DNA of 64,000 nt from a virus: UHGV virus genome UHGV-0289908; one strand, written 5' to 3'. Shown piece by piece: positions 43,970-63,599 of this stretch. The notes beneath the pieces are model-generated. The model was not told the DNA's origin and searched no databases. It worked only from the letters and a program-made list of their open reading frames with translations. Both the position numbers and the translations under genes were made by a program. Each line of letters starts with the position of its first letter. The stretch's first letter is position 1.

Positions 43970-44046
43970 TGGGGTTTCCTGTTGGATTCGAACCAACGAT
44001 AGCTCGGTTATGAGCCGAGAGCTTTGACCGACTAAGCTAAGGAAAC
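43970..44046 (-). tRNA. tRNA-Met (anticodon CAT; could be an initiator, elongator or lysidine-Ile type), CCA encoded
   Basis: Hand-folded reverse complement: acceptor GTTTCCT/AGGAAAC, D stem GCTT/AAGC, anticodon stem CTCGG/CCGAG with loop CTCATAA, T arm GTTGG-TTCGAAT-CCAAC, then C-CCA. Confidence 0.75.
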
Positions 44047-44424
44047 AAAATAAAAAGAATGACCCTCATGACAGCCACGTGGATAGCAGGAGAAAGAGTT
44101 TCAGCTCCCTTAGCCATTACTCGTGGATTTTTATGTAAGTTTAAAGTATCATCTTTCAGCTTTGTAGTATAAATAGCTTTGAAGTTTCAACTTTCAACTT
44201 TAAACCTTCAACTTTGAGCTTTTCCCATGTATAAGTATTTACCCTTGCTCCGACGACTCTCTGCGTCTAGCCGTAAATCTTCCATTTATCTGTATTGTTC
44301 TATAGATAAGCACTTTTGCCCAATATAAGTAGAAAGTAACGATTTATTAACCCAAAACCGTTGGAAAGGGGAATCTCTCTTTGTGCCACTTCGTCACAAG
44401 GGTCATATTATTTATCTAGTCAAA

Positions 44425-45057
44425 TTAGTCTTCAATTACAATCTTAGTGATTGCATTTGAGACTGTTAAAGCAGTGTCAATCTCTAACTCGAAGTCTAAG
44501 ATTTCTTGCTCACGTTTTTCGATTAAGTCACGTAACCCTAATGGGTCTACTAAATCCCAACCGTTTTTGTCACGATATGACTTTTCAAAAGAAGTGATGA
44601 ACTCATCCCTCTTGTTTGCTAAGTCTCCGCTTGCCATAGCCAACACTTGACGTTGGATATAGTCTTCGACTTTATCGTTCTCACGTGAAACTTTTGTTTC
44701 TGCATTGCGAAGAGCCTGCTTCATGCAAGCTAACACTTGTTTTTCGCTCTCAATGGTACGCTTGCGGTCAATGGCTGTCATCACTGAATAAGTAACTCCT
44801 GCAACCTCAATCATTGTTTGAGCGTTGGATGTCATGATGGCATGTTTTAATTGTTGCTGACGTTTTAATAAAGCGTCCGCAGAGTCCATGATTGTTTTAG
44901 CACGCACTGCAAAGTCTGCTACAGGTTCACGAGTTTCAGAAACTCTGTTCTCAGAATTCTTGCGTGTTCCAATGATACGGAAGTCTGATAATCGTTTGTC
45001 AATACGGCTCTCTAAGGTATTTAACTCGTTTAAAGCTCTTTGAACTGTCATTTCCAT
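44425..45057 (-). CDS. Hypothetical protein (210 aa)
   Basis: ORF from the track. Confidence 0.45.
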   Translation of the reverse strand: MEMTVQRALNELNTLESRIDKRLSDFRIIGTRKNSENRVSETREPVADFAVRAKTIMDSADALLKRQQQLKHAIMTSNAQTMIEVAGVTYSVMTAIDRKRTIESEKQVLACMKQALRNAETKVSRENDKVEDYIQRQVLAMASGDLANKRDEFITSFEKSYRDKNGWDLVDPLGLRDLIEKREQEILDFELEIDTALTVSNAITKIVIED

Positions 45058-45098
45058 ATGTATAACATCCCCTTTAAAATAAGTTTTTAAAATCGTTA

Positions 45099-45172
45099 TG
45101 GTGCTCCTACTCAGAATTGAACTGAGATTTCATCATTACCATTGATGTGTTCTGCCATTGAACTATAAGAGC
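45099..45172 (-). tRNA. tRNA-Thr (anticodon GGT), CCA encoded
   Basis: Reverse complement: acceptor GCTCTTA/TAGGAGC, D stem GTTC/GAAC, anticodon stem CATCA/TGATG with loop ATGGTAA, T arm CTCAG-TTCAATT-CTGAG, then A-CCA. Confidence 0.7.
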
Positions 45173-45218
45173 ATTTGTGGGAGGAATCCCACAGACTTTT
45201 ACCTGCATTCTTCCATTT

Positions 45219-45310
45219 TGGCGGACAGGGTGGAATTCGAATCCACGCACGACTAAAAGCCGTCTAATGCCTTAGCAGGGCACCCTCTTAAGCCACTTGA
45301 GTACCTATCC
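45219..45310 (-). tRNA. tRNA-Ser (anticodon GCT), class II with a long variable arm, CCA encoded
   Basis: Reverse complement: acceptor GGATAGG/CCTGTCC (one G-U pair), anticodon stem GTGCC/GGCAT with loop CTGCTAA, ~20-nt variable arm, T arm GTGGA-TTCGAAT-TCCAC, then G-CCA. Confidence 0.65.
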
Positions 45311-50821: not shown

Positions 50822-51645
50822 TATTTTTTCATCTCCTTTTTCACTCTCTCTTGTACTCCATTTGCCTTTTGATAATACCGCTGTGCCTGTTCTTTGAATT
50901 TGGAAGGAGATTGCTTTTTACGAGAATGAGGTTGACGCTTCTCAAGAAGTCTCATGCAATAACTCGACACATCTTCAATCTCGTTGTTAACAAACTCTTT
51001 TTTCAATGACTCTGCACGGTCGCTTATCAAAGCATTTAAGCATGAACACCATTCGGTGGCGAAGAGCTGTCCTTGATTAAGGATTAAGATACGCTCACTT
51101 ACGTGTTCAACGATTCTTTTGAGCTCTGCTTTTGCAGTACTTGGAATCAAAGGGTCAATCTGTGTTATCATGGTTTTAATCTCCTTATGTCCTAATTGTT
51201 CCTTGTTCGATTCCTCAATCATTCGTTTTATTTCACACAGTCCTATAAACAACTGTAATTGTCGTCGTATGTCTTTTTCGATTTGATTTTGGGTTCTTCG
51301 CTCTTCTGAAACTGAATGGTTGTTTCCTCCAAGTTGAACATTATAGCCCTTGTTGTTGTTGGTTGAGTCGTAATACTCTATCCAGAATTTTTCCTTTTCG
51401 TTTAATTCCGCAACTGTTAGTCCACGGTCAATTATTTCAACAATGAAGTTTTCCGCTCCGTATTTTCTAATGGAGTTTGCTAGGTATAGGTTTACTTTTG
51501 GAGAATTTGCGATTCTCTCCACTCCCACTCCTTTCCCACAATATCTTTTATTGAAGGTCTTTTGGGTTTGTCCTATGTACACTTTTCCGTTTACTTGATT
51601 TGTAACCTTGTATATAATCATGGTTTCCGTTTCAAGTGCTTTCAT
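50821..51645 (-). CDS. GIY-YIG homing endonuclease (about 274 aa from the corrected start)
   Basis: Track ORF 50821..51714. The likely start is the ATG at 51645, after AAGGAG. Motif MIIYKVTNQVNGKVYIGQT...NKRY...YGAENFIVEII...N matches the GIY-YIG catalytic core. The C-terminal half is helical (a likely DNA-binding module). Confidence 0.7.
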   Translation of the reverse strand: MKALETETMIIYKVTNQVNGKVYIGQTQKTFNKRYCGKGVGVERIANSPKVNLYLANSIRKYGAENFIVEIIDRGLTVAELNEKEKFWIEYYDSTNNNKGYNVQLGGNNHSVSEERRTQNQIEKDIRRQLQLFIGLCEIKRMIEESNKEQLGHKEIKTMITQIDPLIPSTAKAELKRIVEHVSERILILNQGQLFATEWCSCLNALISDRAESLKKEFVNNEIEDVSSYCMRLLEKRQPHSRKKQSPSKFKEQAQRYYQKANGVQERVKKEMKK

Positions 51646-51662
51646 CTCTCTACTCCTTTGTC

Positions 51663-51917
51663 TTATCCAATAAAAATAATTTTCACTTCTTCTCCTGTAA
51701 TACGACAGTAACAATCTGCTACTCGACCCGAATCACGGATGAAATCAACAATCGACTCTGTTAATTCTTCAACGTATTCAATCTTGTCTTTTTTTTCGTC
51801 CCCAAATCCTAAGAAGCGGTTCGGGGTAAAATACATACAACCATACCCCACTCTCGTTTGTACCTTGAACTCTTTTCCTACCATGGACGCTAAAACCATA
51901 CTGTCTAGCTTAGTCAT
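51663..51917 (-). CDS. Hypothetical protein (84 aa)
   Basis: ORF from the track. Confidence 0.4.
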   Translation of the reverse strand: MTKLDSMVLASMVGKEFKVQTRVGYGCMYFTPNRFLGFGDEKKDKIEYVEELTESIVDFIRDSGRVADCYCRITGEEVKIIFIG

Positions 51918-52037: not shown

Positions 52038-52838
52038 CTAAGCTCTTTCAGTGTTCTCAATAATGCTAACCGAGATTGCTCGAAGGTCTCCCTCAAACAC
52101 TCGTGCTACCACTTGATAAAACTCCCAAGTCATGTCCATATGCGAACAAATGTATTCCATACGATTGGTGTTTGACTTTACCTCTCCACGCTCAATGGCT
52201 CTTCGTAAACGGATATCAACATTCATGTGGTGAGCTAAGTCAAACTCCTTGTAAGCAAGGGCATAGCGTCCTTGATATCCACCACGTGCTCCGAAACGGA
52301 TGATTTGATTAATGCGTTGACGTAGTTCTGGTTTTGGTGAGTCTTGCGTTAATCCCATAATGATTTGCTTTTGATGTTCAATCTCTTTCATTTGGGTTTC
52401 AATTTTGACATTCTGTTGCTGAATGATAGCATCTTTCTTATTCAGTGTTTGTTGGGCAATCATAAGAGCCTTAGCCATAATGGTTGCTTCATCATCTTCT
52501 TGAGCTACAGGGATGTAACCACCTGTCGTGCGAATTTGCTTTAGGATTTTCTTAACTTCTTTCTTGAATGCCTTAGCGATTGGTTTACGTGATTGCATAA
52601 GAACTTCATACAATCCATCTTCGGTTAAGAACCAAGCTCTTTGCTTTCCTCCAAGGGTACAAACATTGTTTGTAACCTTTTCTTCTTCATCAACTTTACG
52701 CAACATTGTTGAAACATCACTGTGTTCAATCCATTCTGCCACATCTTTTGCTAGGAACAATGGAGCTTCCTTAGTCCCATACATTTTAAATTCTTTTTCG
52801 AGCACTACCTGCTCATGCACTACTGTTAATGCTGTCAT
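52038..52838 (-). CDS. Bro-N / KilA-C-like antirepressor-family protein (266 aa)
   Basis: N-terminal ~110 aa resemble Bro-N domains (FLAKDVAEWIEHS...WFLTEDGLYEVLMQSRKPIAKAFKKEV), followed by a coiled coil and a C-terminal domain. Confidence 0.5.
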   Translation of the reverse strand: MTALTVVHEQVVLEKEFKMYGTKEAPLFLAKDVAEWIEHSDVSTMLRKVDEEEKVTNNVCTLGGKQRAWFLTEDGLYEVLMQSRKPIAKAFKKEVKKILKQIRTTGGYIPVAQEDDEATIMAKALMIAQQTLNKKDAIIQQQNVKIETQMKEIEHQKQIIMGLTQDSPKPELRQRINQIIRFGARGGYQGRYALAYKEFDLAHHMNVDIRLRRAIERGEVKSNTNRMEYICSHMDMTWEFYQVVARVFEGDLRAISVSIIENTERA

Positions 52839-54128: not shown

Positions 54129-54142
54129 AAATGTACCCCTTT

Positions 54143-54180
54143 CTATGTTTCAAAAAAAGCCCCTATATTAACCCCCCTAA
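54143..54180 (-). promoter_or_regulatory. Leader hairpin plus U-tract (attenuator-like) between the leftward promoter and the first gene
   Basis: Minus-strand RNA reads CTATATTA-GGGGGGT-TAATATAG GGGCTTTTTT. Confidence 0.4.
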
Positions 54181-54272
54181 TATAGTTATTATATTATATA
54201 TTTAGGGGTTTTAAACAGGGGTATTTTTTTTGTTTCAGCTCTGACATCAGTTCGTCAAAACTCGACTTCCTT

Positions 54273-54301
54273 ATTTTATAATATTTAAGCACAGTTGTCA
54301 A
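54273..54301 (-). promoter_or_regulatory. Leftward sigma-A-type promoter
   Basis: On the minus strand: TTGACA (54301-54296), 17 nt, TAAAAT (54278-54273). Confidence 0.5.
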
Positions 54302-54774
54302 TAGTTTTTCGGTACAAAGTTTAACAACTTCGTACCTCACACATCCAAGCTCCGTCACTTCGTTCCTACCTTGTCTGTGGTTATTGACCATGAAATGAAG
54401 TATTATGACCCGTCCGAACTGTGAGGGACGAACAGTTTGGCGGTAAGGTCACAATACGAATGGAATGAGTATTGTGACCGCAAAATCTTTTTATCAATAA
54501 AATTTTTTATTTACCGACATTTTATTGTAATGGGTATGAGCCTTAATATAGGACGATTTAAGAAGGGGTTATTTAGGGTATGGTTAATTTTATATGGGGA
54601 TGTGTAACGTTGCTTAGAAAGGCTTATATTGCGTTATAGGGGTATTGTGAGCCATCTATATAATGATGAATGTGATATATGGGTATGGGGACAAATATAG
54701 AATATGGGGTATTTATACGGAAACACACCCCCTCCCCTTTCCATATATAGAAAATGGTGTTTTTCAATTTTTCA

Positions 54775-54870
54775 CGTTTTTGAGCTATTTTTACGCATTT
54801 TTAACGTTTTTTGCTTAAAATTTGCTATTTTTTGTCGTTTTTCAGTGTTTTTTGTCGTTTTTTGCAAAAT
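54775..54870. repeat. Phased T5-6 tracts at 10-11-bp periodicity (intrinsically bent DNA)
   Basis: cacgttttt gagctattttt acgcattttt aacgtttttt gcttaaaattt gctatttttt gtcgttttt cagtgtttttt gtcgtttttt. Confidence 0.6.
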
Positions 54871-55299
54871 CAAGGTATAGGAAATGGGCTATTTTGACGG
54901 TATTTGGTCAAAATATAGCGACAAGAGGTAAAAAAGTGACCAAAATTGAGTCTGAAACAACGGATTTATCGGGATTTTGTATGAATTGCCCTATATAAAG
55001 GTTGAGATTTGAGGATGATTGTTCCATTTAGAAGGGCTGATTTTGGGGTAAATTAATGGAAATCTCAACCGTTTTAGGATAGTCTGTGGAGCTCCTTATG
55101 CTCTGAGTGGCATGAGAGACTATAGTCCGTAGTTGTCTTTGGACTATTCGGGAGTTTCTTGAGAATAGGTAGAAATACCAGTGGGAGACGAGGAAGTTCT
55201 GGAGATGGATATTCTCTTGAGTTCTTCGGTAGAGACTCGATATCTTTTGTGATTAAAATGGGCAAAAGTATTGATGGCAGTAGTGTTTGGAGGTCTTTT

Positions 55300-55440
55300 G
55301 CAGGGGTTAGAGGGAGCTAGAGGGAGAGGTGAATCTGGAGCGGGAGAGCTGAATGATGTGAGTGGGAAGAGCTTGAGAGGGAGAGGTTTGAGGGGGAAGT
55401 GGTGTGGAAGAGGTGTGGAATGAGCCGTGTGGGAATGGAA
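55300..55440 (+). repeat. Polypurine (GA-rich) tract with multiple G3-5 runs
   Basis: About 140 bp that are roughly 80% purine on the plus strand (gagggagctagagggagaggtgaatctggagcgggagag...gagggggaagtgg). Confidence 0.6.
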
Positions 55441-55704
55441 CAGATACCCGAGTCTGTTCGCATTTTTCGACCTTTTTCGACGTAAACCGACCCCCCTGTA
55501 AGCGTTTTCCAATGACCTATAATGTAGCTTATGAGTCCCCCAATGTGTTCAAATTGTGTCTTTTTTCTGGTTCGACAGGATTCGACATTTTCCCCAATTA
55601 TTCGACATCACTATAAAAGGTATAGCCCAAACTATACCTTTTAGGTAAAACGTTATAACCTTTTTATCGTTCAACCTGTCTATACATGTTGATGAAACAC
55701 ACAA

Positions 55705-55960
55705 ATACTAAACTTTTCCCTTACTATCACTAAACACGACCCACGACCCCCAAAAAGTTTACCTATATTAAACAAAAAGTTTACCCACACTAAACCACAC
55801 AAATATTAAACTTTAGGTTTAAAAATATTAAACCACAAAATTACTAAACAAAAAGTTTAAAATCACTAAACACCCTTATGTTTAGTCACACTAAACACAA
55901 GTTTAAAAATACTAAACATGACCTAGTTTATAAATACTAAACCAATGTTTATAAATACTA
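55705..55960. repeat. ACTAAAC iteron array (about 10 copies) interleaved with AAGTTTA repeats
   Basis: aaatACTAAACtttt, tcACTAAACacg, cacACTAAACcac, attACTAAACaaaa, tcACTAAACaccc, gtttagtcacACTAAACac, aatACTAAACatg, aatACTAAACcaatg, aatACTAAACtcaag. Confidence 0.6.
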
Positions 55961-55968
55961 AACTCAAG

Positions 55969-56012
55969 TTATCCACAAGCTACCCACTTATCCACAACCA
56001 ACCTGTGGATAA
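55969..56012. promoter_or_regulatory. Cluster of three DnaA boxes (TTATCCACA, TTATCCACA, and TGTGGATAA inverted); candidate replication origin
   Basis: Exact 9-mers at 55969-55977, 55988-55996 and 56004-56012, directly following the iteron array and preceding an AT-rich stretch. Confidence 0.6.
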
Positions 56013-56379
56013 CTACAAGCACAAACGCCGATAAAAGTCAAGTAAAAACTTAATTAAATTTTTCACAATGAAACCGTTTTCCTGCAATGCACACTTTTGC
56101 CTATTTGTCAACCCCCTTAAATTACCCCATGTAACCGCTTTATTTCAGCTTTTAAGGGGGGTCGGGTATAATAACCCTCAGAGCGTCTTAAAACGAAAAA
56201 CAGGAATTTCGACACGATTCGACACGCTAAAACGCTTACAATTTTTCTCATGTTGAAATTTGTCGAATTTTGTCACCGACCTTACTTCGTGAAATACTTC
56301 ACAAATCGAACGTGTTCGGTTATGTCCAACTTGTGTTCGAGTTTGTGAAATAATTAATAATGACACACCCGACCCTGTG

Positions 56380-56423
56380 GTATACGTGCGTGCGTGCGTG
56401 CGTACACGTGCGTACACGTATGT
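56380..56423. repeat. Perfect 44-bp alternating purine-pyrimidine tract ((CG/TG)n), Z-DNA-prone
   Basis: gtatacgtgcgtgcgtgcgtgcgtacacgtgcgtacacgtatgt, with strict R-Y alternation checked base by base. Confidence 0.6.
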
Positions 56424-56487
56424 CCATATATAGACACGACCTCAAAAGTTTGTGAAATATTTAATTTAAAAGAACACAAAATGAACA

Positions 56488-56516
56488 CAACTTCACCCCG
56501 TGACCGTGGTAATATA
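56488..56516 (+). promoter_or_regulatory. Rightward promoter P0 (extended -10 TGgTAATAT, weak -35), followed by the conserved ATAAGTGTGCTnAGG start region
   Basis: -10 at 56510-56515. The transcript begins with a GUGCUGAGGGGCAC hairpin. Confidence 0.4.
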
Positions 56517-56604
56517 TAAGTGTGCTGAGGGGCACGGGTTGAGCCCCGACACAATTCGACAAATTATGTCGAAAATAAAAAATTAAATTTTTTTCGAAAA
56601 ACTG

Positions 56605-56633
56605 TTGACGGTAAAATCAACATGTGATAATAT
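56605..56633 (+). promoter_or_regulatory. Rightward promoter PA: TTGACG, 17 nt, TGaTAATAT. The -35 lies inside the palindrome TGTTGAC-N7-TCAACA.
   Basis: -35 at 56605-56610, -10 at 56628-56633, extended TG at 56625-56626. Confidence 0.6.
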
Positions 56634-56639
56634 ATAAGT

Positions 56640-56860
56640 GTGCTAAGGCACAGCATTCAGAATAGGCGTAGAAATTAAAGCCCGCATGTACTTTACGGGA
56701 AACACAAGACGTAAAGGTTGAAGTTAAAAACTCATAGCTAGGCTATGGCACTGGGGAATAATCGCCCCAGGTGAACTGATAGGCTGATAAGTTGGTTCAG
56801 ATTGACGTTCTTTAGTTCGGGGGTTGAAATTCTGAAAAACGAAAAAAATTTTTTAAAAAA
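56640..56860 (+). ncRNA. Candidate structured non-coding transcript downstream of PA (GC-enriched, many local hairpins)
   Basis: No ORF. Hairpins GCCCGCATGTACTTTACGGGAAAC, CATAGCTAGGCTATGG, CTGGGGAATAATCGCCCCAGG and GTTCGGGGGTTGAAATTCTGAA, ending in an A/T run before the next promoter. Confidence 0.3.
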
Positions 56861-56864
56861 ACTG

Positions 56865-56893
56865 TTGACTTCAAAATCAACAGGTGATATACT
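56865..56893 (+). promoter_or_regulatory. Rightward promoter PB: TTGACT, 17 nt, TGaTATACT. The -35 lies in the palindrome TGTTGACttcaaaaTCAACA.
   Basis: -35 at 56865-56870, -10 at 56888-56893. Confidence 0.55.
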
Positions 56894-57263
56894 TGATTTG
56901 TGTTGGTGAGTGTCCTAAGCAACTCGGAGGTCTAGGTGAAACCCCTCATTTGGGATATAGTGAATCGCACAGGGTCATTTCCCCGCGTGGTCACGGTTCT
57001 TTGAAAACATTATACAAAATCATAACGGGATAACCCGCAAGTCGCACGGGATAAGTAGCGAGACCCTAACATTAGAGTCGGATGGGCGAAAAAAGAGGGG
57101 CGATAATAGAGAGTAGTATAGCATAGTGGATTGAGTGATTGAACAGGTGCTAAGGCGGGCGAACGTTTGAAGCCGTTAGAGACTACCCGACCGCACACGT
57201 CACGAATACGGCAACATCCACAGGGACGACCAAAAAATCAAAAATCAAAAAGGACGTGATAAT

Positions 57264-58019
57264 ATGGAAACAATCAAATTTACTCGTAAAAAACAATTCT
57301 TAACATTTTTAAATGAAACGGTATCTACAAAATGTGACGAAATTCGACATCTAGAGTCTATTGTAGACAAAAAGTTTATTGAAACGGTTGGTTACCGATT
57401 AGGAATTGAGTACACTGAACAATACTCTTATGAGGCGATTTTCGCTGGATATGAGGGAGAAAAAGCAATCATCAATAATATCCAACGTTCTACCTTATGG
57501 GATATGTCATATCATGCCAATGGTTTAATGGCAAAAATGAATGAACAAATTGAATACTTGCAATTTGCTATTGAACACGGTAAAAAATTCGCAACTTATG
57601 GCGATTGTATTAAAGCATGGCATGAATTTAAAGATAACGGGACAATTCCGACAGAAATCGACACGGAAAAAGTCGAAAAAGCGGAATCATTTGATGACAA
57701 AACTTGTAAAAATCAAGTAGAATTTTTAAATGTGGTGCAAAAAGATTTACAAAACCACTCAAATCGACAAGCACGAAAAAAGCAACTTAACGAAGAAACG
57801 ATAAAAAACGACACGGAAAATGTGGAAAATGTAGAAAAAACAGAAGAAACAACACCATGTAAAAATTGTAAAACATGTGCAAATTGTTTCCACTGTGAGT
57901 TAGATGGGGAATATGGAGAATGTAAAAATAGGTCGTGCATAGTGAGGAGAAAAGATAGCTGTTCACTGTTCATGTATAAACTTGAGTCAAGCTCCCCAAC
58001 GGGTCACACTAAAACGTAA
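57264..58019 (+). CDS. Early protein (251 aa) with a C-terminal Cys-rich cluster (9 Cys in 35 aa)
   Basis: ORF from the track. The roughly 370-nt GC-rich leader runs from PB. Confidence 0.55.
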   Translation: METIKFTRKKQFLTFLNETVSTKCDEIRHLESIVDKKFIETVGYRLGIEYTEQYSYEAIFAGYEGEKAIINNIQRSTLWDMSYHANGLMAKMNEQIEYLQFAIEHGKKFATYGDCIKAWHEFKDNGTIPTEIDTEKVEKAESFDDKTCKNQVEFLNVVQKDLQNHSNRQARKKQLNEETIKNDTENVENVEKTEETTPCKNCKTCANCFHCELDGEYGECKNRSCIVRRKDSCSLFMYKLESSSPTGHTKT

Positions 58020-58084
58020 AAAATTAGTGTGACCACTGGAGGGCTTGACCCTGTAAAAATCAAAAAAAATTGGAGGAAATTAAA

Positions 58085-58351
58085 ATGCAAAAATATTATG
58101 TTACTATGAACGATACTTTTATGAGTGGATGGGGTTGTGCTGATGGAAAAATTAACAAATTAATCTTTGAATGTGATTCATACCATGAAGCGGAAATTGT
58201 AGCGGATAATGCTCGCTACCGTGGGGATATGAAATACATCAACATCAATCACAATAAACCACGATATAGCGGTACACGCTATCTAGTGCAGGAAAAAACA
58301 AAAACGGACTACCCGAATTGGTATGAGAAAAATTATTTCTATAAACACTAA
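58085..58351 (+). CDS. Hypothetical early protein (88 aa)
   Basis: ATG at 58085, 7 nt after GGAGG within TTGGAGGAAATTAAAATG. The track start at 58070 is a TTG lying inside the RBS. Confidence 0.55.
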   Translation: MQKYYVTMNDTFMSGWGCADGKINKLIFECDSYHEAEIVADNARYRGDMKYININHNKPRYSGTRYLVQEKTKTDYPNWYEKNYFYKH

Positions 58352-58468
58352 AAAATAGTCGTGTGGGCGACTTAAAAAAGGCACTTAAGCCCACAGCGTC
58401 CACCCGTTGCGGGTGGGGTGTGCACTTGAAAAAAGTGTGTAAAATATGAATTTTATGGAGGTATTACA

Positions 58469-58690
58469 ATGACTTATATTGTGAAATTTATCAATGCGAA
58501 AAAAGAAAATCCATGCGGTAGCGAGTGGACACGAATTATTAAAGATTTAAAAACAATTCGAGGGGTTGAAAATCGCATTACACGTGGGGTTAAACCTGTT
58601 GGAGCTGTCGGTTATAATATCTATCAAACGGCAAATATTTATGATGAAAAAAGTTATAGATTAATGCAAAAAGTTTATTTCACTAATTAG
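58469..58690 (+). CDS. Hypothetical early protein (73 aa)
   Basis: RBS GGAGG 8 nt upstream. Confidence 0.55.
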   Translation: MTYIVKFINAKKENPCGSEWTRIIKDLKTIRGVENRITRGVKPVGAVGYNIYQTANIYDEKSYRLMQKVYFTN

Positions 58691-58751
58691 TAGTAACACA
58701 AGACACAAAAAAATTTGTGTCCTGTATAGTGCTAATTAATAGCATGAAAAA
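58688..58751 (+). repeat. Repeated intergenic element, copy 1 (TAGTAGTAAC..GACACAAAAAAATTTGTGTC..TGCTAATTAATAGCA..GAAAAA)
   Basis: Near-identical to copy 2 at 59275-59337. Contains two hairpins. Confidence 0.6.
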
Positions 58752-58773
58752 TAAAAAATTGGAGGAAATTAAA

Positions 58774-59277
58774 ATGTTTACTATGGAAATTATCAACTAC
58801 ACAACTGATGAGGTTTATTATTTTGAGCGTTGGAGTGAAATCGAAGGAAAATTAGAGGAATTACAAGCTACTCACCCAACCCACGAAATTGGAGTATCAC
58901 ACTTTACAATATTTGGGGTGGAAATTCCATATACTAAGGAAAATGTAGAATTTATCAACTCACACGACGGCGAAGAAATTGAAGCGGTTATTACATACTA
59001 TACCAACGAATACGGTGTAGTCCCTATGGTAGAATTGCAAGACGTGGCGGACTATATGGAAAATAGAGCATGTGTGACCTATTATTTAGGGGACGACGAA
59101 ATCGAAGCGTTCGAAAATTATTGTGATGAGTTGGGAATGTTTAAGGATGTACCCGAACACGTGACACGATATATTGACTATGAAAAAATGTTGCGTGACT
59201 ATAAATTTGACGGTATGGGGGTTTACCGCTTATCATATGACCACCCGACACAATATCGCTATATGTTCTGTAATTAG
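58774..59277 (+). CDS. Hypothetical early protein (167 aa)
   Basis: ATG at 58774 after TTGGAGGAAATTAAAATG, which is identical to the RBS context of the 58085 gene. The track ORF is N-terminally extended. Confidence 0.55.
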   Translation: MFTMEIINYTTDEVYYFERWSEIEGKLEELQATHPTHEIGVSHFTIFGVEIPYTKENVEFINSHDGEEIEAVITYYTNEYGVVPMVELQDVADYMENRACVTYYLGDDEIEAFENYCDELGMFKDVPEHVTRYIDYEKMLRDYKFDGMGVYRLSYDHPTQYRYMFCN

Positions 59278-59337
59278 TAGTAACGCAAGACACAAAAAAA
59301 TTTGTGTCTTGAATAGTGCTAATTATAGCATGAAAAA
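59275..59337 (+). repeat. Repeated intergenic element, copy 2
   Basis: TAGTAGTAACgCAAGACACAAAAAAATTTGTGTCttGaATAGTGCTAATTATAGCATGAAAAAA. Confidence 0.6.
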
Positions 59338-59362
59338 ATATAAAAATATTGGAGGTTATCCT

Positions 59363-59440
59363 ATGAAAAGTTTAAACTATTTTATGTTTGGACTGATTAC
59401 CGTTTGGGTCGGTTGTAGTATTATTGTTACAGTTTTCTAA
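59363..59440 (+). CDS. 25-aa hydrophobic micropeptide (MKSLNYFMFGLITVWVGCSIIVTVF)
   Basis: RBS TTGGAGG 7 nt upstream. Single predicted TM helix. The track shows only an overlapping out-of-context 88-aa ORF. Confidence 0.4.
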   Translation: MKSLNYFMFGLITVWVGCSIIVTVF

Positions 59441-59499
59441 TTAAAAAAATATAAAATTGTGATTTTATTCACATATGCACACACTGGAGGATAAAAAAA

Positions 59500-59685
59500 A
59501 TGTTAGTAATTAAAATCATTGACACACTATCAAATATCATTACGGAAATTTTTTACATGGTCGCATGTGGCTTATATATGGCATGGCAATATCGAGCCCT
59601 TATATTTGCTTGTGGAATTGTTGCGACGGTGTTCTTTTTAGGATTATATGGGTACTGTTTACGAATTGAAGGAATTTTATTTTAA
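59500..59685 (+). CDS. Small membrane protein (61 aa, two hydrophobic segments)
   Basis: RBS CTGGAGGA upstream. Confidence 0.5.
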   Translation: MLVIKIIDTLSNIITEIFYMVACGLYMAWQYRALIFACGIVATVFFLGLYGYCLRIEGILF

Positions 59686-59692
59686 AAATATG

Positions 59693-59721
59693 TTGACAGT
59701 AAAATCAACATATGATAATAT
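59693..59721 (+). promoter_or_regulatory. Promoter PC: TTGACA, 17 nt, TGaTAATAT. The -35 lies in the palindrome TGTTGACagtaaaaTCAACA.
   Basis: -35 at 59693-59698, -10 at 59716-59721. Followed by ATAAGTGTCAAC. Confidence 0.55.
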
Positions 59722-59756
59722 AATAAGTGTCAACAACTTAAGGAGGTCATTAACTT

Positions 59757-59969
59757 ATGAATTTTAATAGAACATATTGCGGAAAAAAATTTAGTATTAC
59801 CATTGAATTGCCTTATGACGAGGGAAATTGCGGATATATTAAAGTAGAAAATCATCCTTTAGAAAATTTTGAATATTGGGAATCATTCACGTGGTATCCA
59901 TTCATTGAGACATTGGACGAACGTCTACAGGATGTTGAGGAAGAAATTAAAGAGTTTTTACCTAATTAG
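59757..59969 (+). CDS. Hypothetical early protein (70 aa)
   Basis: RBS AAGGAGG upstream. Confidence 0.55.
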   Translation: MNFNRTYCGKKFSITIELPYDEGNCGYIKVENHPLENFEYWESFTWYPFIETLDERLQDVEEEIKEFLPN

Positions 59970-60056
59970 TGTCATTTAAAAGGTATTAAAAAATAATACC
60001 TTTACTAATGCTACTAATAGCATGAAAAAAAAATAAAAAACTGGAGGAATTGAAAA

Positions 60057-60290
60057 ATGGTAGTATCTTTAAAAACTGTAATTAGAATCATGAATGAAAT
60101 TGAAAAGATGGAAAATTTAGACGGGGATAGTTTAGAGTATGCAACAGACATTGAGCAGGAAAATCGTTACATAATACGAGCTTATGACCCTAACACAAAT
60201 AGGACTTTATACGTGTACATTAGCAAGCCGAAAAATCGCTATACATACGAATATAAATTTGTAGACGGTGAAAATTTTAATCAATATTAA
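60057..60290 (+). CDS. Hypothetical early protein (77 aa)
   Basis: RBS CTGGAGGAATTGAAAAATG. Confidence 0.55.
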   Translation: MVVSLKTVIRIMNEIEKMENLDGDSLEYATDIEQENRYIIRAYDPNTNRTLYVYISKPKNRYTYEYKFVDGENFNQY

Positions 60291-60364
60291 TATTATTATA
60301 CCATGTGACCTATTTAAAATAGGTCGTATGAATATTGACATGATATGTCAAGTTAAAAAATGTG

Positions 60365-60393
60365 TTGACATTGAAAACAACATGTGGTAATAT
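60365..60393 (+). promoter_or_regulatory. Promoter PE: TTGACA, 17 nt, TGgTAATAT. It is preceded at 60335-60350 by the palindrome TTGACATgaTATGTCAA.
   Basis: -35 at 60365-60370, -10 at 60388-60393. Confidence 0.55.
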
Positions 60394-60429
60394 TTAAGTA
60401 TCGAAAAAATAATTTGGAGGAATTAATTT

Positions 60430-61053
60430 ATGAAAACTTTAGACGTGAAAAATTTATTTGTGGGAACTATGGATAATGAAACGGTTGTGACTTTAAACAT
60501 TAAACAGGTAGAATCTAATGGGGTGTATACGCTAGACGCACACTATTGTCAATCAGTAATCGAGCACGAAAAAATTTATGATGTTGAGAGTGAGCTGACC
60601 TCATTCATTGACAACGCTCGCTATGATAACAACTCTATGCGTGTGGTATTTGATTGGTTATATGACTATGATTGTGCCCTATCCGATTTAGCTTACAACA
60701 TTGCGTCGGAGTGCGAAGGTGATGTATACAAGACAAGGGAAATTCTTGAAGCAATGGACATTTATTGCGACCACGATTCATATGAGGAGGAAGCTATTGC
60801 AACAACAGAATGTAACGGGAAAAAATTCTACCTAATCGAGCAAGATAGTGAGGTCGCACCGTTTGATGGTACGAATGTATGGGGGACAAAATTAGCATAT
60901 CCCGTATTTATTCAACTATTCGCATTGATTGAGGTATACAACCACAAATACTATAGTGAATCACTTGCGGAGGAAATTAAACTAGCGGTTGAAAAATGCA
61001 ATGCAAATTTACAGGAACATTTTGAAGCCTTCATCCAACACATTGAACAATAA
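60430..61053 (+). CDS. Highly acidic early protein (207 aa); DNA-mimic / anti-restriction candidate
   Basis: ORF from the track. Very high Asp/Glu content throughout. RBS TTGGAGG. Confidence 0.5.
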   Translation: MKTLDVKNLFVGTMDNETVVTLNIKQVESNGVYTLDAHYCQSVIEHEKIYDVESELTSFIDNARYDNNSMRVVFDWLYDYDCALSDLAYNIASECEGDVYKTREILEAMDIYCDHDSYEEEAIATTECNGKKFYLIEQDSEVAPFDGTNVWGTKLAYPVFIQLFALIEVYNHKYYSESLAEEIKLAVEKCNANLQEHFEAFIQHIEQ

Positions 61054-61147
61054 TAGCTTGTGACACTATACCATATGTCCTATAGGTCATATAGGACATA
61101 TGAATATTGACACAAGTCAATGAAATAAAACTTATTGGAGGAATATT

Positions 61148-61570
61148 ATGATTAAAAACATAACTACAACATACGGAAAATTTGAATTGCGAGCGATTCA
61201 CGCTCAAGAAAAAAATGCACCGTGGGAAGATGGAAAAGATAGAACACACTGTCACTATATTATCCGTGTAAAGGATGTAGAGACAAAAAAATTCTTTGTG
61301 TTCGATTATTGGACATCATTAGCAAACCCAATTATCAATAGCAACGTGGAAATTTTAAAAGCCTTCGAATTATTTTTAGATGATTGTTTGATTGCTACTG
61401 ATACCGTGGAAAATTTCATCTATCGTAACGAATTTAAGTCAGAAAAGGAAGCACGTCGAATCTATGCAACATGTACTCGCTCACTAAGAAAAATGCAACG
61501 ACTATATGATGAGTCTATTGTAGATTTGGCGAACAACTTAAGTACTCATATTAATAATTTAACGGTTTAA
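61148..61570 (+). CDS. Hypothetical early protein (140 aa)
   Basis: RBS TTGGAGG. Upstream lie the TTGACAcaaGTCAA palindrome and a 13-bp inverted repeat. Confidence 0.55.
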   Translation: MIKNITTTYGKFELRAIHAQEKNAPWEDGKDRTHCHYIIRVKDVETKKFFVFDYWTSLANPIINSNVEILKAFELFLDDCLIATDTVENFIYRNEFKSEKEARRIYATCTRSLRKMQRLYDESIVDLANNLSTHINNLTV

Positions 61571-61632
61571 TACATAAGGGGACAACAGTCCCCACCCTAT
61601 CAATACTTATGAAAAATTTGGAGGTTTGTCAC

Positions 61633-61884
61633 ATGAAAAAAATTAAAATTCTATGCACTGTTGGATTATTGTCTGCACTGACCTTAATTGTTGGGTGCTC
61701 GAATCAAGAGACAGTGCACGATAGATTTGCATTAGGAAAAAACAATAGCCCCGTTACTGTTTGGTTAGAAAAAGGGGACGCTATCGAACGCAATGGGAAA
61801 CTCATCTTTTCAGCGACGGAAAGCACTGAGGTCGAGCTGATTGTTTATGGAAATTATAAAATTTTTACCCCAAACAAAAAATAA
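61633..61884 (+). CDS. Small lipoprotein (83 aa), a superinfection-exclusion-type candidate
   Basis: ATG at 61633 after GGAGG, then MKKIKILCTVGLLSALTLIVGCSNQ (signal peptide plus lipobox LIVGC). Confidence 0.5.
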   Translation: MKKIKILCTVGLLSALTLIVGCSNQETVHDRFALGKNNSPVTVWLEKGDAIERNGKLIFSATESTEVELIVYGNYKIFTPNKK

Positions 61885-61888
61885 AGTG

Positions 61889-61917
61889 TTGACTTTGTGG
61901 TCAATGTATGATAATAT
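61889..61917 (+). promoter_or_regulatory. Promoter PG: TTGACT, 17 nt, TGaTAATAT, with the palindrome TTGACtttgtgGTCAA
   Basis: -35 at 61889-61894, -10 at 61912-61917. Confidence 0.55.
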
Positions 61918-62011
61918 AAGAGTATAGTTTTAATCAGTCTACAACGATTGTTGTAGATTGAATTAAGACTGATAGTCTGAAAAATTCGAAAATACTGGAG
62001 GAATTAAAATT

Positions 62012-62311
62012 ATGACAACATTATTAACTATCAAGGATTTAAACTTAGGTGAGGAAAAAAAAATTCAAGAGATTGCCAGTAAGTTGGATTGGTCGGTGGA
62101 AAGTGTATTGGAGTGTGATGATTTTCACACGGAAAATTCAGCTCTTGATATGTTAGAATGGATTTATGAGGGCGACGGTGCTAACACGGTGTTATATGCA
62201 CTTGATGAAGCAAAAGTGATTGACCCTACTCTATCATTGCTTGAAAATTTATTGTTGAATCAAGAATCAGTGTTTAGCATTGATGGAGGGTACTTATTCT
62301 TTTATATCTAA
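62012..62311 (+). CDS. Hypothetical early protein (99 aa)
   Basis: RBS CTGGAGGAATTAAAATTATG. Confidence 0.55.
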   Translation: MTTLLTIKDLNLGEEKKIQEIASKLDWSVESVLECDDFHTENSALDMLEWIYEGDGANTVLYALDEAKVIDPTLSLLENLLLNQESVFSIDGGYLFFYI

Positions 62312-62401
62312 TCATTGTCTTAACTCAGTCTACAATCTCGATTGTAGATTGTATTAAGGCTATGAGCCTGTGAAATCTAAAATGAAAAGGTGGAAATTAA
62401 A

Positions 62402-62704
62402 ATGAAAGAAAAAATAATTGATTTTGGAAATTTATTAAATGAATTAAAAAAAGAAAGAGTAAAAATTGTATTTGTAAAAAACAGAGGTATTTTTTTAGAA
62501 GATAGTGAAAGCAATTTATACATAATAGAACTAAAAAAACATGGCTCATGTCTTGATAGGTTAATAGAAAAACGTGAAAAGGTTAAATTTTATATGCTAG
62601 ATAAAAACCTAAGTAAAAATATTAAAGATTGGGAAAAAGAGGTTTGGTCTTTAGGTGATGTTGAAGATTTTATGAAAAAATGTAAATTAATTAATAGTAA
62701 ATAA
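62402..62704 (+). CDS. Hypothetical protein (100 aa)
   Basis: ATG after AAAGGTGGAAATTAAAATG. The track start is a GTG inside the RBS. Confidence 0.5.
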   Translation: MKEKIIDFGNLLNELKKERVKIVFVKNRGIFLEDSESNLYIIELKKHGSCLDRLIEKREKVKFYMLDKNLSKNIKDWEKEVWSLGDVEDFMKKCKLINSK

Positions 62705-62741
62705 AATTGGAATTTGATTGAATTGAAAGGTGGAAATTGAA

Positions 62742-62882
62742 ATGGAAAACTTAGAAAAACTTAACAAATTACTTTCTTTATTGGAGCATAACATACGACA
62801 CCATGAAACACGTGGTGATTACAAATATTATGAAAAGTTGGAAGAAATTAAAGATGAAATCAGAGAATTAGTTAGTAAATAA
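62742..62882 (+). CDS. Small protein (46 aa), not in the ORF track
   Basis: GAAAGGTGGAAATTGAAATG context. Sequence MENLEKLNKLLSLLEHNIRHHETRGDYKYYEKLEEIKDEIRELVSK. Confidence 0.4.
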   Translation: MENLEKLNKLLSLLEHNIRHHETRGDYKYYEKLEEIKDEIRELVSK

Positions 62883-62918
62883 AAATCATGCTTTAAATCA
62901 AAAATGGAGGTAGAAAAA

Positions 62919-63095
62919 ATGTGGGCAATGGCAATTTCAGATTACACAAGTAAACGAACAGGTGAAGTGTGGGTCACAGAGGGCAAACAATACAAGGTCA
63001 TAAAGAAACACTCAAACACGAACGAATACACCATTAGAAACGACAATAATAAAATATGTGTAGTCCCACAGGAGATATTTACCGTTGTAAGATAG
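62919..63095 (+). CDS. Hypothetical protein (58 aa)
   Basis: ATG at 62919 after ATGGAGG. The track start is that RBS-internal ATG. Confidence 0.5.
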   Translation: MWAMAISDYTSKRTGEVWVTEGKQYKVIKKHSNTNEYTIRNDNNKICVVPQEIFTVVR

Positions 63096-63136
63096 TACTG
63101 ATGAAGTTAATTGCATATTGAAGGGTGGAAAACTAT

Positions 63137-63331
63137 ATGGCACTACAATGTTTCTTTACAAAAGAGCAACTTGAAAAAATGGATAATCGAGAACTATTAT
63201 TCGAGTACAGAACAATCATTCAAGAGGTTGAAGAGTACAAAGGAAGATTGAAAAATATTGACACTATGATGAAGTTGGTTGACTATAGACAATTAATAGG
63301 CGAGTTAATTCTTGAGCGTATGGATAAATAA
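63137..63331 (+). CDS. Hypothetical protein (64 aa)
   Basis: ATG after AAGGGTGGAAAACTAT. Confidence 0.5.
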   Translation: MALQCFFTKEQLEKMDNRELLFEYRTIIQEVEEYKGRLKNIDTMMKLVDYRQLIGELILERMDK

Positions 63332-63362
63332 TAACAGGAAAATTTGAAAGGTGGAAATTAAA

Positions 63363-63599
63363 ATGATTAAAGAAATTTTTGAAGGATTCATTCTTCCTCA
63401 ACTAGACGAACAATTAAACAGTGAGTGGTTAAATGAAGAACAGTATGAATATTTAGTTAGCAAGAGCGAGCTACTTGCGACACGCATGCAAGAGTTTTAT
63501 AAACACTATGAGAAAAATTCTATTGAACTTGAATCAGATGTCGAATTAGAGTATTTAGATAATTTATTCACAGAAGTTTTAAATACTAAAATAAATTAG
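63363..63599 (+). CDS. Hypothetical protein (78 aa)
   Basis: ATG after GAAAGGTGGAAATTAAAATG. Confidence 0.5.
   Translation: MIKEIFEGFILPQLDEQLNSEWLNEEQYEYLVSKSELLATRMQEFYKHYEKNSIELESDVELEYLDNLFTEVLNTKIN

Follow-up and report, generated by a model that had tools for sequence, protein, structure and literature searches.

Promoter-proximal boxA elements are known from several control regions. In rRNA operons, tandem strong promoters, P1 and P2, with A/T-rich UP elements are followed by an untranslated leader with a boxB hairpin, boxA, and boxC, which works with a Nus-factor antitermination complex. A hairpin precedes boxA, the two being separated by 3 to 12 nt in real rrn leaders; boxB is not strictly required in these systems. 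Phage lambda carries a promoter-proximal boxA and hairpin (nutL and nutR, with the N protein) in the leader of its first early gene, in the order boxA, then boxB. Phage T7 has three host-polymerase promoters, A1, A2, and A3, spaced about 120 to 130 nt apart and followed by a boxA and the first early gene, the latter about 175 nt from A3; its first early operon includes an anti-restriction function, a polymerase encoded by the phage transcribes the later genes, and there is an RNase III site, R0.3. Outside these systems, functional boxA elements occur in 5′ UTRs, the consensus in gamma-proteobacteria being GYTCTTTAANA (PMC5725501), and CRISPR arrays give rise to long untranslated RNAs that boxA shields against Rho (PMC7665894).

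Here we describe a candidate locus of this kind in the virus genome UHGV-0289908, of which a stretch of 64,000 nt (the window) was analyzed. The interval 56640-57263 lies directly upstream of the first early gene, gene 1 (Table 1), and was compared with the leaders of 12 related contigs, which fall into three types (T1, T1′, and T2) with non-homologous sequences after boxA. In our preferred reading, the interval serves a Bacillus-type phage as the untranslated leader of its first early operon, with an rrn-type boxA as a candidate Nus-factor loading site; we put the probability of this reading at roughly 0.55. By analogy with rRNA operons, lambda, and T7, such a leader is a known kind of control region. 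The promoters and transcripts discussed below are predictions from the DNA sequence.

Table 1. Features predicted in and around the gene 1 leader (window coordinates)
Feature	Coordinates	Strand	Remarks
Possible third upstream promoter P0	56507..56515	+	Extended -10 TGgTAATAT, poor -35
UP-element-like A/T tract of PA	56573..56601	+	Read from sequence; same tract upstream of every family promoter
Promoter PA	56605..56633	+	TTGACG, 17-bp spacer, TG-extended TAATAT; dyad CTGTTGA/TCAACA over -35 and spacer
5′-terminal hairpin of PA transcript	56640..56651	+	GUGCUAAGGCAC; from fold
Window-specific insert between PA and PB	56663..56835	+	173 nt; flanked by ATTC(A/T)GAA
UP-like A/T tract of PB	56841..56861	+	Near-consensus, GAAAAAAATTTTTTAAAAAAA; conserved in L002, L003
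Promoter PB	56865..56893	+	TTGACT, 17-bp spacer, TG-extended TATACT; dyad CTGTTGAC..TCAACAG; aligned with relatives
Two small 5′ hairpins of PB leader	56902..56956	+	56902-56923 and 56941-56956
Long imperfect hairpin, boxB-like position	56960..56994	+	Ends 1 nt before boxA; same order as rrn leaders
boxA	56996..57008	+	GTTCTTTGAAAAC; identical to Bacillota rRNA-operon boxA
Non-coding 3′ block of T1 leader	57021..57230	+	210 nt; includes ACGGGATAA repeats at 57025 and 57046
A-rich tract of variable length, then Shine-Dalgarno	57231..57263	+	Shine-Dalgarno AAAGGACGTGAT (57249-57260)
Gene 1, first early gene	57264..58019	+	251 aa, no family match; served by this leader

The two promoters that an earlier note on this DNA had placed ahead of gene 1 look real, judging from their sigma-A-type motifs, the existence of further family members, and their conserved positions. 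PA and PB match the sigma-A consensus at 9 and 10 of 12 positions, respectively, both with the TG extension, and each reads as a sigma-A (sigma-70-type) promoter with an UP element; transcription from PB is predicted to start near 56900. A 45-nt architecture is common to PA, PB, and promoters at 59693, 60365, and 61889, so that five or more sigma-A-type early promoters of almost the same sequence make up one family. All of them combine TTGAC and a TG-extended -10, separated by 17 bp, with a UP-like A/T tract; the 21-nt core of the family occurs 5 times against an expectation of 0.16. Related phages have promoters of the same family at equivalent positions, and sequence comparison finds PA kept in L185 and L189. 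As for P0, it shares its opening 25 nt with PA (56506-56530 and 56624-56648, 92% identical), and its equivalent in L004 and L012 has a full TTGACG -35.

According to the earlier note, PA and PB give rise to two discrete transcripts of about 220 and 370 nt. This does not hold up, as intrinsic terminator prediction finds no plus-strand terminator-like site in 56400-63400 and hence none after either segment. Because no such terminator lies between PA, PB, and 57264, the two RNAs are best regarded as nested leaders running into gene 1, and PA and PB are most likely tandem promoters that give nested 5′ ends of one mRNA, with leaders of ~625 and ~365 nt. Leaders of this length contrast with those elsewhere in the window (~30 nt for the promoters at 59693 and 60365, ~90 nt for that at 61889), and a gene 1 leader of 357 to 531 nt is found in 12 of 12 related phage contigs. 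The outcome comes near the case that the earlier note had set against its own proposal, a long 5′ UTR of the gene at 57264, but this UTR carries a recognizable signal and a highly conserved block.

The stretch specific to the PA RNA consists mostly of the 173-nt insert, for which no homolog was found in any of the related loci. At the corresponding position, L185 and L189 have nothing, and L002, L003, L004, and L012 have ~75 nt with two small hairpins. Within the insert, a hairpin at 56681-56699 is followed by AAGACGTAAA (56706-56715), a core common to L002-type relatives, and by further hairpins at 56733-56747, 56751-56770 (the example given in the earlier note), and 56773-56798; a partial boxA-like GTTCTTTAG lies at 56807-56815. 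The PA-PB spacer would appear to be a dispensable, variable insert. The 5′ ends of the two RNAs have counterparts in relatives: the first 26 transcribed nt of the PA RNA have 96% identity to L185 and L189, and the first 65 nt of the PB leader are ~82% identical in L005 and L007, with 97.6% and 86.7% pairing in helices 1 and 2 of the PB leader by pair counts. These 5′-terminal hairpins probably stabilize the RNA.

The boxA of the PB leader is the only exact copy of GTTCTTTGAAAAC in the 64-kb window, and GTTCTWTGAHAA has one match in each of nine matching related loci, always in the gene 1 leader. It is also the only block invariant across the non-homologous leader types; even in L182, where a 95-nt deletion has removed the whole 5′ part, GTTCTTCGAAAAC is retained. 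The element lies on the plus strand, 97 nt after the predicted PB start (96 to 125 nt from the start in relatives) and 268 nt before the ATG. With one additional base, the 13-mer becomes GTTCTTTGAAAACT, a 14-mer that serves as an rrn signature. Its 82 matches in public genomes include 29 at rRNA operons, 16 of them upstream of 16S (45 to 217 nt from its 5′ end) and 13 in the 16S-23S spacer, with about 10 more at contig ends in Bacillota; the copies upstream of 16S and in spacers come from Bacillus, Paenibacillus, Neobacillus, Mycoplasma, and other genomes. Compared with the gamma-proteobacterial GYTCTTTAANA, GTTCTTTGAAAAC differs at 1 of 11 positions; a Bacillus-type host is presumed for this phage from its known relatives, which are all of that type. 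In the searched literature, the only papers found on the Bacillota boxA sequence concern PCR primers for mycoplasma spacers.

Directly before boxA, the hairpin at 56960-56994 has 95.8% of cells paired (RNAalifold, pair counts), and three of its pairs are altered on both sides between T1 and T1′, that is, in two lineages only. All leader types have a hairpin ending 1 to 2 nt before boxA, those of the T2 leaders being different ones. A leader-trailer helix like that of rRNA processing, between 56969-56994 and 58029-58054, was considered and rejected, since complementarity is found only with T1 (z of about -3 versus -0.3 to -1.5); the trailer 58029-58054 is conserved whether the phage has a T1 or a T2 leader, and it forms a covarying local hairpin of its own.

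Taken together, these features suggest the following course of events. Host sigma-A RNA polymerase would transcribe the leader from the tandem strong promoters PA and PB, and possibly P0, each with its UP-like tract. The hairpin and, right behind it, an exact boxA of the host rRNA-operon type would appear in the RNA some 97 nt from the PB start; NusB/S10 would bind this boxA and, with NusA and NusG, render the elongating polymerase resistant to termination, chiefly by Rho. Transcription could thereby survive an unusually long untranslated leader and go on into the early genes. Antitermination through boxA is, we infer, the most likely mechanism. Several observations speak against it. Over the next 6.5 kb, prediction gives no intrinsic terminator, so that any benefit of boxA would have to concern Rho or the elongation rate. 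The 13-mer contains a partial palindrome and may instead be a site in DNA; the covariation of the hairpin comes from two lineages only; and boxA accounts for only ~50 of the 365 nt, leaving the length of the leader and the conservation of its 3′ block unaccounted for.

All plus-strand frames in 56640-57263 are interrupted by stops and include no credible ORF, in agreement with the earlier note, which had called the interval ORF-free. The sole long open frame, on the minus strand at 57010-57198, does not evolve in a protein-like manner: homologs differ at 0 synonymous and 6 to 7 non-synonymous sites, L003 has a frameshift, and no PHROG match was found. A short plus-strand frame might still encode a leader peptide, from a GTG at 56937 to a TGA at 57003 (22 aa), as the GTG follows a Shine-Dalgarno GGAGG by 6 nt and the frame stops at the TGA of boxA, where a TTG frame in L002, read from its sequence, likewise terminates. 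However, a 1-nt deletion in L003, L185, and L189 shortens this frame to 7 or 8 codons, and the Shine-Dalgarno sequence is absent in L005 and L007. On these grounds, the leader peptide and the minus-strand ORF were rejected, and we consider a hidden small protein of either kind exceedingly improbable. The GGAGG at 56926-56930 may be an RNA stabilizer.

Both segments had further been described as GC-enriched and dense in hairpins. The first claim holds for the PB leader, which has 47.3% GC (49.1% without the A-rich tail) compared with 38.1% for the window and ranks in the top 0.2% of 316-nt windows, but not for the PA segment, which at 39.8% is average. The second finds no excess over chance in the PB leader, with minimum free energy (MFE) z-scores of +1.22 for the whole, +0.57 for the 5′ part, and +0.31 for the 3′ part; the PA segment reaches a modest -2.59 versus shuffles. 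The quoted motifs themselves are present (CTGGGGAATAATCGCCCCAGG at 56751, ACGGGATAA at 57025 and 57046, and a 40-mer at 57027). No Rfam 15 covariance model matches the interval at its gathering score, and a search of the relatives' leaders gave no match at E values of up to 10. At this permissive threshold, only two sub-threshold matches overlap the interval, STnc430 (56787-56894; 26.2 bits versus a gathering score of 47; E = 0.46) and DUF2693 (56819-56892; 15.9 bits versus 81.3; E = 9.5), located in each case over the PB promoter and its A/T tract. The substitutions in the 3′ block do not covary.

The possibility remains to be weighed that one or both segments are free-standing functional ncRNAs, such as an sRNA, an RNAP-binding RNA, a riboswitch-like element, or a processed stable RNA. 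This would suit the strong promoters without an ORF, the GC-rich PB leader, the conservation of its 3′ block at 97 to 99% beside a gene at 71 to 80% identity, and the somewhat better than shuffled folding of the PA segment; the operon also employs RNA devices, there being a Pistol ribozyme at 58357-58423. An independent sRNA gene would, however, have its own terminator or other 3′ end signal, and none was found on the plus strand, although the promoters are present. Neither the Rfam searches nor the positive z-scores of the PB leader point to such an RNA, the PA insert is missing from relatives, and the PB leader is conserved only within type T1, without covariation, its place being taken by non-homologous cassettes in other phages. 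We therefore regard free-standing ncRNAs as improbable. The earlier note had offered ncRNAs or regulatory leaders; what stands is the regulatory leader, with a PB leader of conserved length and a hairpin and boxA in all variants.

A highly conserved part of the leader lies downstream of this signal. From boxA to 57225, the sequence is 96.8 to 98.7% identical to L003, L184, L185, and L189, whereas the adjacent gene 1 is only 71 to 80% identical in L184, L185, and L189. No conserved ORF is found in the 3′ block, its MFE z-score is +0.31 on the plus strand and +0.02 on the minus strand, and its composition is strand-asymmetric (G 99, C 73). T1′ and T2 leaders have non-homologous blocks of similar length in its place. 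Only the hairpin and boxA are common to all three types; among the 3′ parts, the only shared motif is the 12-mer TAAGGCGGGCGA, at the edge of the null distribution.

One way to read this conservation is that the 3′ block and the invariant 13-mer act as DNA, whether as sites close to the origin that a phage or host protein binds or as a signal for recombination or packaging, with transcription being incidental. The non-coding stretch belongs to a 3.1-kb ORF-poor region (54129-57263) that also has iterons and three DnaA boxes, 0.9 kb from the leader; the block is almost perfectly conserved with no RNA-structure signal on either strand; the 13-mer, read from its sequence, is partly dyad-symmetric; and the promoters contain operator-like dyads. 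Yet the 13-mer is the rrn boxA, always on the transcribed strand and at a fixed distance from the start, and both the G-over-C asymmetry and the unrelated sequence of similar length in other phages argue against a DNA site, the latter being a better fit to a role in transcript length or as RNA. A DNA-level function thus seems unlikely.

Alternatively, the leader may be a plain long 5′ UTR that provides spacing only, its conservation reflecting recent lateral exchange of a promoter-leader module and the boxA match being a relic. The mosaicism is clear: L184 joins an L004-type promoter to a T1 leader, L002 has a T2 leader despite an 81% identical protein, identity drops sharply at the edges of the leader modules, and the inter-promoter spacer differs by 0, ~75, or 173 nt. 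Against this, long leaders occur in all of the relatives, and three leader types that are unrelated in other respects have an invariant boxA, which persists despite the deletion in L182; by our own calculation, the chance expectation of the boxA 12-mer in a 400-nt leader is ~1e-4. We consider it improbable that spacing is all there is to this leader.

With some hesitation, we also suggest that 57021-57230 and its T1′ and T2 counterparts might be functional RNA cassettes that can stand in for one another at the head of the early operon and belong to a kind not yet described, an idea that is more doubtful than probable. Possible roles include an anti-defense or host-takeover RNA, or a protein-dependent scaffold working with the boxA-loaded Nus complex. 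If the cassette reading is true, selection on the RNA, rather than recent transfer, would explain the well-conserved block beside the divergent gene. A separate proposal is that an abundant boxA leader RNA is a decoy titrating host NusB/S10 away from rRNA operons, or that the variable 3′ cassettes are anti-defense RNAs. Tandem, very strong promoters do stand at the very start of the early region, adjoining an ArdA-like anti-restriction gene in the same operon, and the cassette polymorphism resembles that of anti-defense loci. This proposal is purely inferential, however; there is no repeat array, Rfam gives no similarity to CRISPR repeats or antitoxin RNAs, and one boxA per transcript makes a weak sponge, all of which leaves it very unlikely.

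Wider searches gave little to compare with. At the nucleotide level, the region has no match among phage records, searched in near and distant modes, or among plasmid records. No useful relative came out of IMG/VR with gene 1, the 88-aa gene, the 356-aa gene, or the RNA polymerase as the query. The gene 1 alignment and a 29-nt T1 motif had no match in JGI metagenomes, nor did three leader motifs in IMG/VR. Scanning IMG/VR for a promoter followed after 100 to 130 nt by boxA returned mostly chance matches inside genes; the few that were leader-like had no rRNA nearby.

Returning to the untranslated leader with a candidate Nus-loading boxA, we find that it shares with rRNA operons the tandem promoters with UP-like tracts, the untranslated leader, the order of hairpin and boxA, and a boxA identical to the copies upstream of 16S and in 16S-23S spacers of Bacillota. 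It differs in driving a protein-coding operon and in the distance of boxA from the start (97 to 125 nt); no boxC of the rRNA-operon type was identified in the leader, and a helix between leader and trailer around gene 1 finds no support when the leader types are compared. The likeness to T7 extends from the host-polymerase promoters followed by boxA, where T7 has an exact GYTCTTTAANA 63 nt after A3, to an anti-restriction function in the first early operon (here ArdA-like) and a phage-encoded polymerase. Unlike T7, this phage presumably has a host of another phylum, and its polymerase is YonO-like and unrelated; its leader is 365 nt long and has the extra conserved 210-nt block; and R0.3 has no identified counterpart in it, a long hairpin following gene 1 instead. 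As in lambda, the first early gene has a leader with a promoter-proximal boxA and a hairpin; the gene 1 product has an invariant basic N-terminus, KFTRKKQ. The order of hairpin and boxA is nevertheless the reverse of that in lambda, and the hairpin sequence varies between leader types, unlike the N-terminus of gene 1. An N-like protein was not identified here, the structure model of gene 1 being all-helical and of low confidence (pLDDT 54.8), too poor for a structure search for an N-like antiterminator. Finally, as in 5′ UTRs and before CRISPR arrays (PMC5725501, PMC7665894), a single boxA lies early in an unusually long untranslated transcript; those examples are chromosomal and mostly proteobacterial, whereas this one belongs to a phage with a Bacillota-type host and has a G at boxA position 8.

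The conserved 3′ block provides a defined candidate for a new leader function, and boxA with its hairpin offers a cheap signature by which to find where host-transcribed early operons begin in uncultured Firmicute phages. The searched literature yielded no account of boxA-dependent control in Bacillota phages. Should the boxA prove functional, the locus would be an independent parallel to the A1-A3/boxA layout of T7, the role of which has, to our knowledge, hardly been studied, and this group of phages would be copying the control logic of host rRNA operons, tandem UP-element promoters with a Nus-loading leader, for its early genes.

The window comes from a phage in which minus-strand genes fill 1-54128 and short plus-strand genes begin at 57264, the two blocks being separated by a 3.1-kb ORF-poor region. 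The interval 56640-57263, the leader ahead of gene 1 (the first early gene), forms the right-hand fifth of that region. Protein and DNA similarities point to an affinity with phages of Bacillus and related Bacillota, and the YonO-like polymerase is ~37% identical to its homolog in Clostridium phage c-st. An origin-like block (55695-56012) shares the intergenic region with the early promoters, as does an alternating purine-pyrimidine tract, which may be Z-DNA-prone or a piece of the origin or regulatory region. This tract is the source of spurious mir-297 matches; a longer alternation in related locus L005 (about 1990-2115) gives stronger spurious miRNA matches. Repeats of TTCGACAnnATTCGACA may be a protein-binding site.

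Features of the leader region and its genomic setting
Feature	Position	Strand	Details
PA promoter	56605-56633	+	TTGACG, 17 bp, TAATAT; TG extension; long A/T tract upstream
PB promoter	56865-56893	+	TTGACT, 17 bp, TATACT; TG extension; long A/T tract upstream
Promoter dyads	56602-56623, 56862-56883, 59690-59710, 60362-60382, 61886-61906		TGTTGAC-N7/8-TCAACA
boxA	56996-57008	+	
Gene 1	57264-58019	+	251 aa
ACTAAAC/GTTTA iterons	55695-55963		Part of origin-like block
Three perfect DnaA boxes	55969, 55988, 56004		TTATCCACA (first two), TGTGGATAA (third); 3' of iterons
Purine-pyrimidine tract	56380-56421		GTGCGTGCGTGCGTGCGTACACGTGCGTACACGT
TTCGACAnnATTCGACA, four copies	55571, 56208, 56545, 57647		Three of four intergenic
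Pistol self-cleaving ribozyme	58357-58423	+	Rfam RF02679; 60.8 bits, gathering score 34.5
ArdA-like anti-restriction gene	58774-59277	+	Within early operon
6A RNA match	43298-43348	-	42.5 bits, threshold 41.2
tRNA genes (Met, Thr, Ser)	43970-45310	-	Inside minus-strand gene block
YonO-like single-subunit RNA polymerase	48068-50821	-	917 aa; homologs in SPbeta-like and c-st-like phages
GIY-YIG homing-endonuclease-like gene	50821-51714	-	Adjoins polymerase gene
Bro-N/anti-repressor-like gene	52038-52838	-	

Judged by sequence, the tandem sigma-A-type promoters PA and PB could hardly be better. They share 84% identity over a common 45 nt, and the 21-nt core of their family has five copies in the window where 0.16 would be expected, with the other members at 59693, 60365, and 61889; the same family is found at matching places in related phages. 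Whereas the promoters at 59693 and 60365 have a ribosome-binding site and ATG within ~30 nt downstream, and that at 61889 within ~90 nt, PA and PB have none so close. Every early promoter, relatives included, bears a dyad over the -35 element and spacer, and ahead of the dyad lies a UP-like A/T tract close to consensus. The dyad looks like a putative operator of some regulator; together with a T-run on the minus strand, it scores as an intrinsic terminator.

The earlier note had described two ORF-free, GC-enriched, hairpin-dense transcripts of about 220 and 370 nt. Indeed, the interval holds no credible ORF, and the quoted motifs are present in the window. The sole long open frame (minus strand, 57010-57198) has no PHROG match, differs from its homologs only by non-synonymous changes, and is frameshifted in L003. 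GC enrichment holds for the PB leader (47-49% versus 38.1%, top 0.2% of windows) but not for the PA segment (39.8%). Hairpins are no denser than chance in the PB leader, whose folding energies are ordinary (z = +1.22, +0.57, and +0.31); that of the PA segment is only mildly low (z = -2.59). Two separate transcripts are not borne out, as no plus-strand terminator-like site was found across 56400-63400, and the PA and PB RNAs are therefore probably nested 5' extensions of the gene 1 mRNA.

Searches of public phage, plasmid, IMG/VR, and JGI collections turned up no similar sequence. Gene 1 homologs form 12 clusters in a large protein collection (45-87% identity), whose contigs gave 12 informative loci (L-numbers). 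Synteny is conserved: a minus-strand 356-aa gene and ~3 kb devoid of genes lead up to two or three promoters in tandem and then gene 1. The leader after the last promoter measures 357-531 nt in every related locus. There are three leader types: T1 (the window, L003, L013, L184, L185, L188, L189, and L182 with its 5' part deleted), T1' (L005-L009, the first 65 nt common to T1), and T2 (L002, L004, L012, and L181). Leader type is reshuffled relative to the adjoining gene and promoter: L002 has a T2 leader despite a gene 1 protein 81% identical, L185 has a T1 leader though its gene 1 protein is only 42-47% identical, and L184 joins an L004-type promoter to a T1 leader.

The first 26 nt of the PA RNA form a 5'-terminal hairpin, GUGCUAAGGCAC, also found in L185 and L189, where the A/T tract of the next promoter follows directly. 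Relative to that arrangement, the window has 173 nt inserted at 56663-56835. Copies of an imperfect 8-nt direct repeat, ATTC(A/T)GAA, lie on either side of the insert, which contains GGTTGAA(G/A)TT twice (56716 and 56822); the flanking and internal repeats suggest that the stretch between the tandem promoters is a hotspot at which sequence was inserted or duplicated. The example hairpin of the earlier note (56751-56770) falls within this window-specific insert. L002, L003, L004, and L012 have a different, ~75-nt spacer, in which the motif AAGACGTAAG accompanies two small hairpins; window positions 56681-56715 also have a CCCG...CGGG hairpin and AAGACGTAAA. Because its length varies (0, ~75, or 173 nt), the PA-PB spacer appears dispensable and is not a conserved ncRNA gene.

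Alignment of all leader types reveals a sole invariant block, GTTCTTTGAAAAC (variants GTTCTATGACAA, GTTCTTTGATAA, and GTTCTTTGACAA), which we take to be the boxA of Gram-positive rRNA operons; downstream of it, T1, T1', and T2 share no homology. The element occurs once in the 64-kb window and once per locus in nine matching related loci, always within the gene 1 leader and 96-125 nt from the inferred transcription start. L182 has lost 95 nt upstream of boxA and retains GTTCTTCGAAAAC. An exact-match scan for GTTCTTTGAAAACT, with one genome per species, served as an rrn check and gave 82 matches in 80 analysed loci, 16 of them 45-217 nt upstream of a 16S 5' end and 13 in a 16S-23S spacer; about 10 more lie at Bacillota contig ends in typical leader context, and the remainder look like chance matches in unrelated phyla. 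The window boxA is one position off GYTCTTTAANA, the gamma-proteobacterial consensus (PMC5725501).

In every leader type, boxA comes 1-2 nt after the end of a hairpin. Between T1 and T1', the two lineages compared, the inner sequence of the hairpin is swapped with pairing retained: 95.8% of cells are paired, against ≤54% in slid controls, and three pairs differ on both sides. T2 leaders have their own hairpins ahead of boxA. In genuine rrn leaders from the scan, 3-12 nt separate a hairpin from boxA. A 22-aa leader peptide whose frame stops at the boxA TGA was rejected: L003, L185, and L189 lack 1 nt, which shortens that frame, and the SD is missing in L005 and L007. The same layout was seen in IMG/VR contigs L019, L052, and L053, from an unrelated phage family: a sigma-A-type promoter (in L019 a minus-strand one, near 4133 when numbered along the reverse complement), GTTCTTTGACAA ~105 nt on, ~270 nt more leader, and the first ORF. 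Long early leaders bearing boxA may thus be commoner among Firmicute phages than this group alone.

One feature is truly puzzling. The T1 block 57021-57230, which is non-coding, has 96.8-98.7% identity in L003, L184, L185, and L189, although the adjacent gene 1 has just 71-80% nucleotide identity in L184, L185, and L189. It has no Rfam match, neither strand folds better than shuffles, and its few substitutions show no covariation. The block could be an RNA under constraint other than secondary structure, a DNA site, or the result of recent recombinational spread.

A leader-trailer helix around gene 1, in the style of an rRNA-processing stem, was rejected: complementarity exists in T1 only, even though T2 phages conserve the trailer, which also makes its own covarying hairpin. 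Gene 1 as an N-like protein was also set aside, the structure model being too poor for a test. A long imperfect hairpin (57985-58048, plus strand) spans the gene 1 stop codon, with arms that covary in relatives (GGTCACACTAA/TTAGTGTGACC to GGTGACGCTAT/ATAGCGTCATC) and no T-run after it; RNase III cleavage or other processing is a possible role. The Pistol ribozyme, between early genes 58085-58351 and 58469-58690, is kept at the equivalent place in L002, L004, and L012.

What we observe are promoter-like sequences, no terminators, a long leader that is conserved, and, on the sense strand, a hairpin followed by an exact boxA of the rrn type. The function with the best support is antitermination that depends on this boxA, in a leader placed after tandem early promoters. 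The interpretation proposed earlier is supported in part, for its regulatory leader and not for its sRNAs. Long untranslated RNA is a Rho target. The boxA RNA would recruit NusB/S10, which with NusA/NusG would let host RNA polymerase withstand termination, above all by Rho; such a role would account for the confinement of boxA to the long-leader promoter. Against antitermination, no intrinsic terminators are predicted downstream. Elsewhere, boxA protects rRNA and long CRISPR transcripts by antitermination of this kind (PMC7665894) and is functional in 5' UTRs (PMC5725501).

Tandem UP-element promoters with a boxA leader are the design of rRNA operons, and tandem promoters with a boxA leader that of the T7 left end, which this phage appears to share. 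In T7 (NC_001604), host promoters A1, A2, and A3 are annotated at 498, 626, and 750, an exact GYTCTTTAANA lies at 813-823, and gene 0.3 starts at 925. The likeness to T7 extends to an anti-restriction gene in the early operon, here ArdA-like, and would extend to a phage polymerase taking over the later genes.
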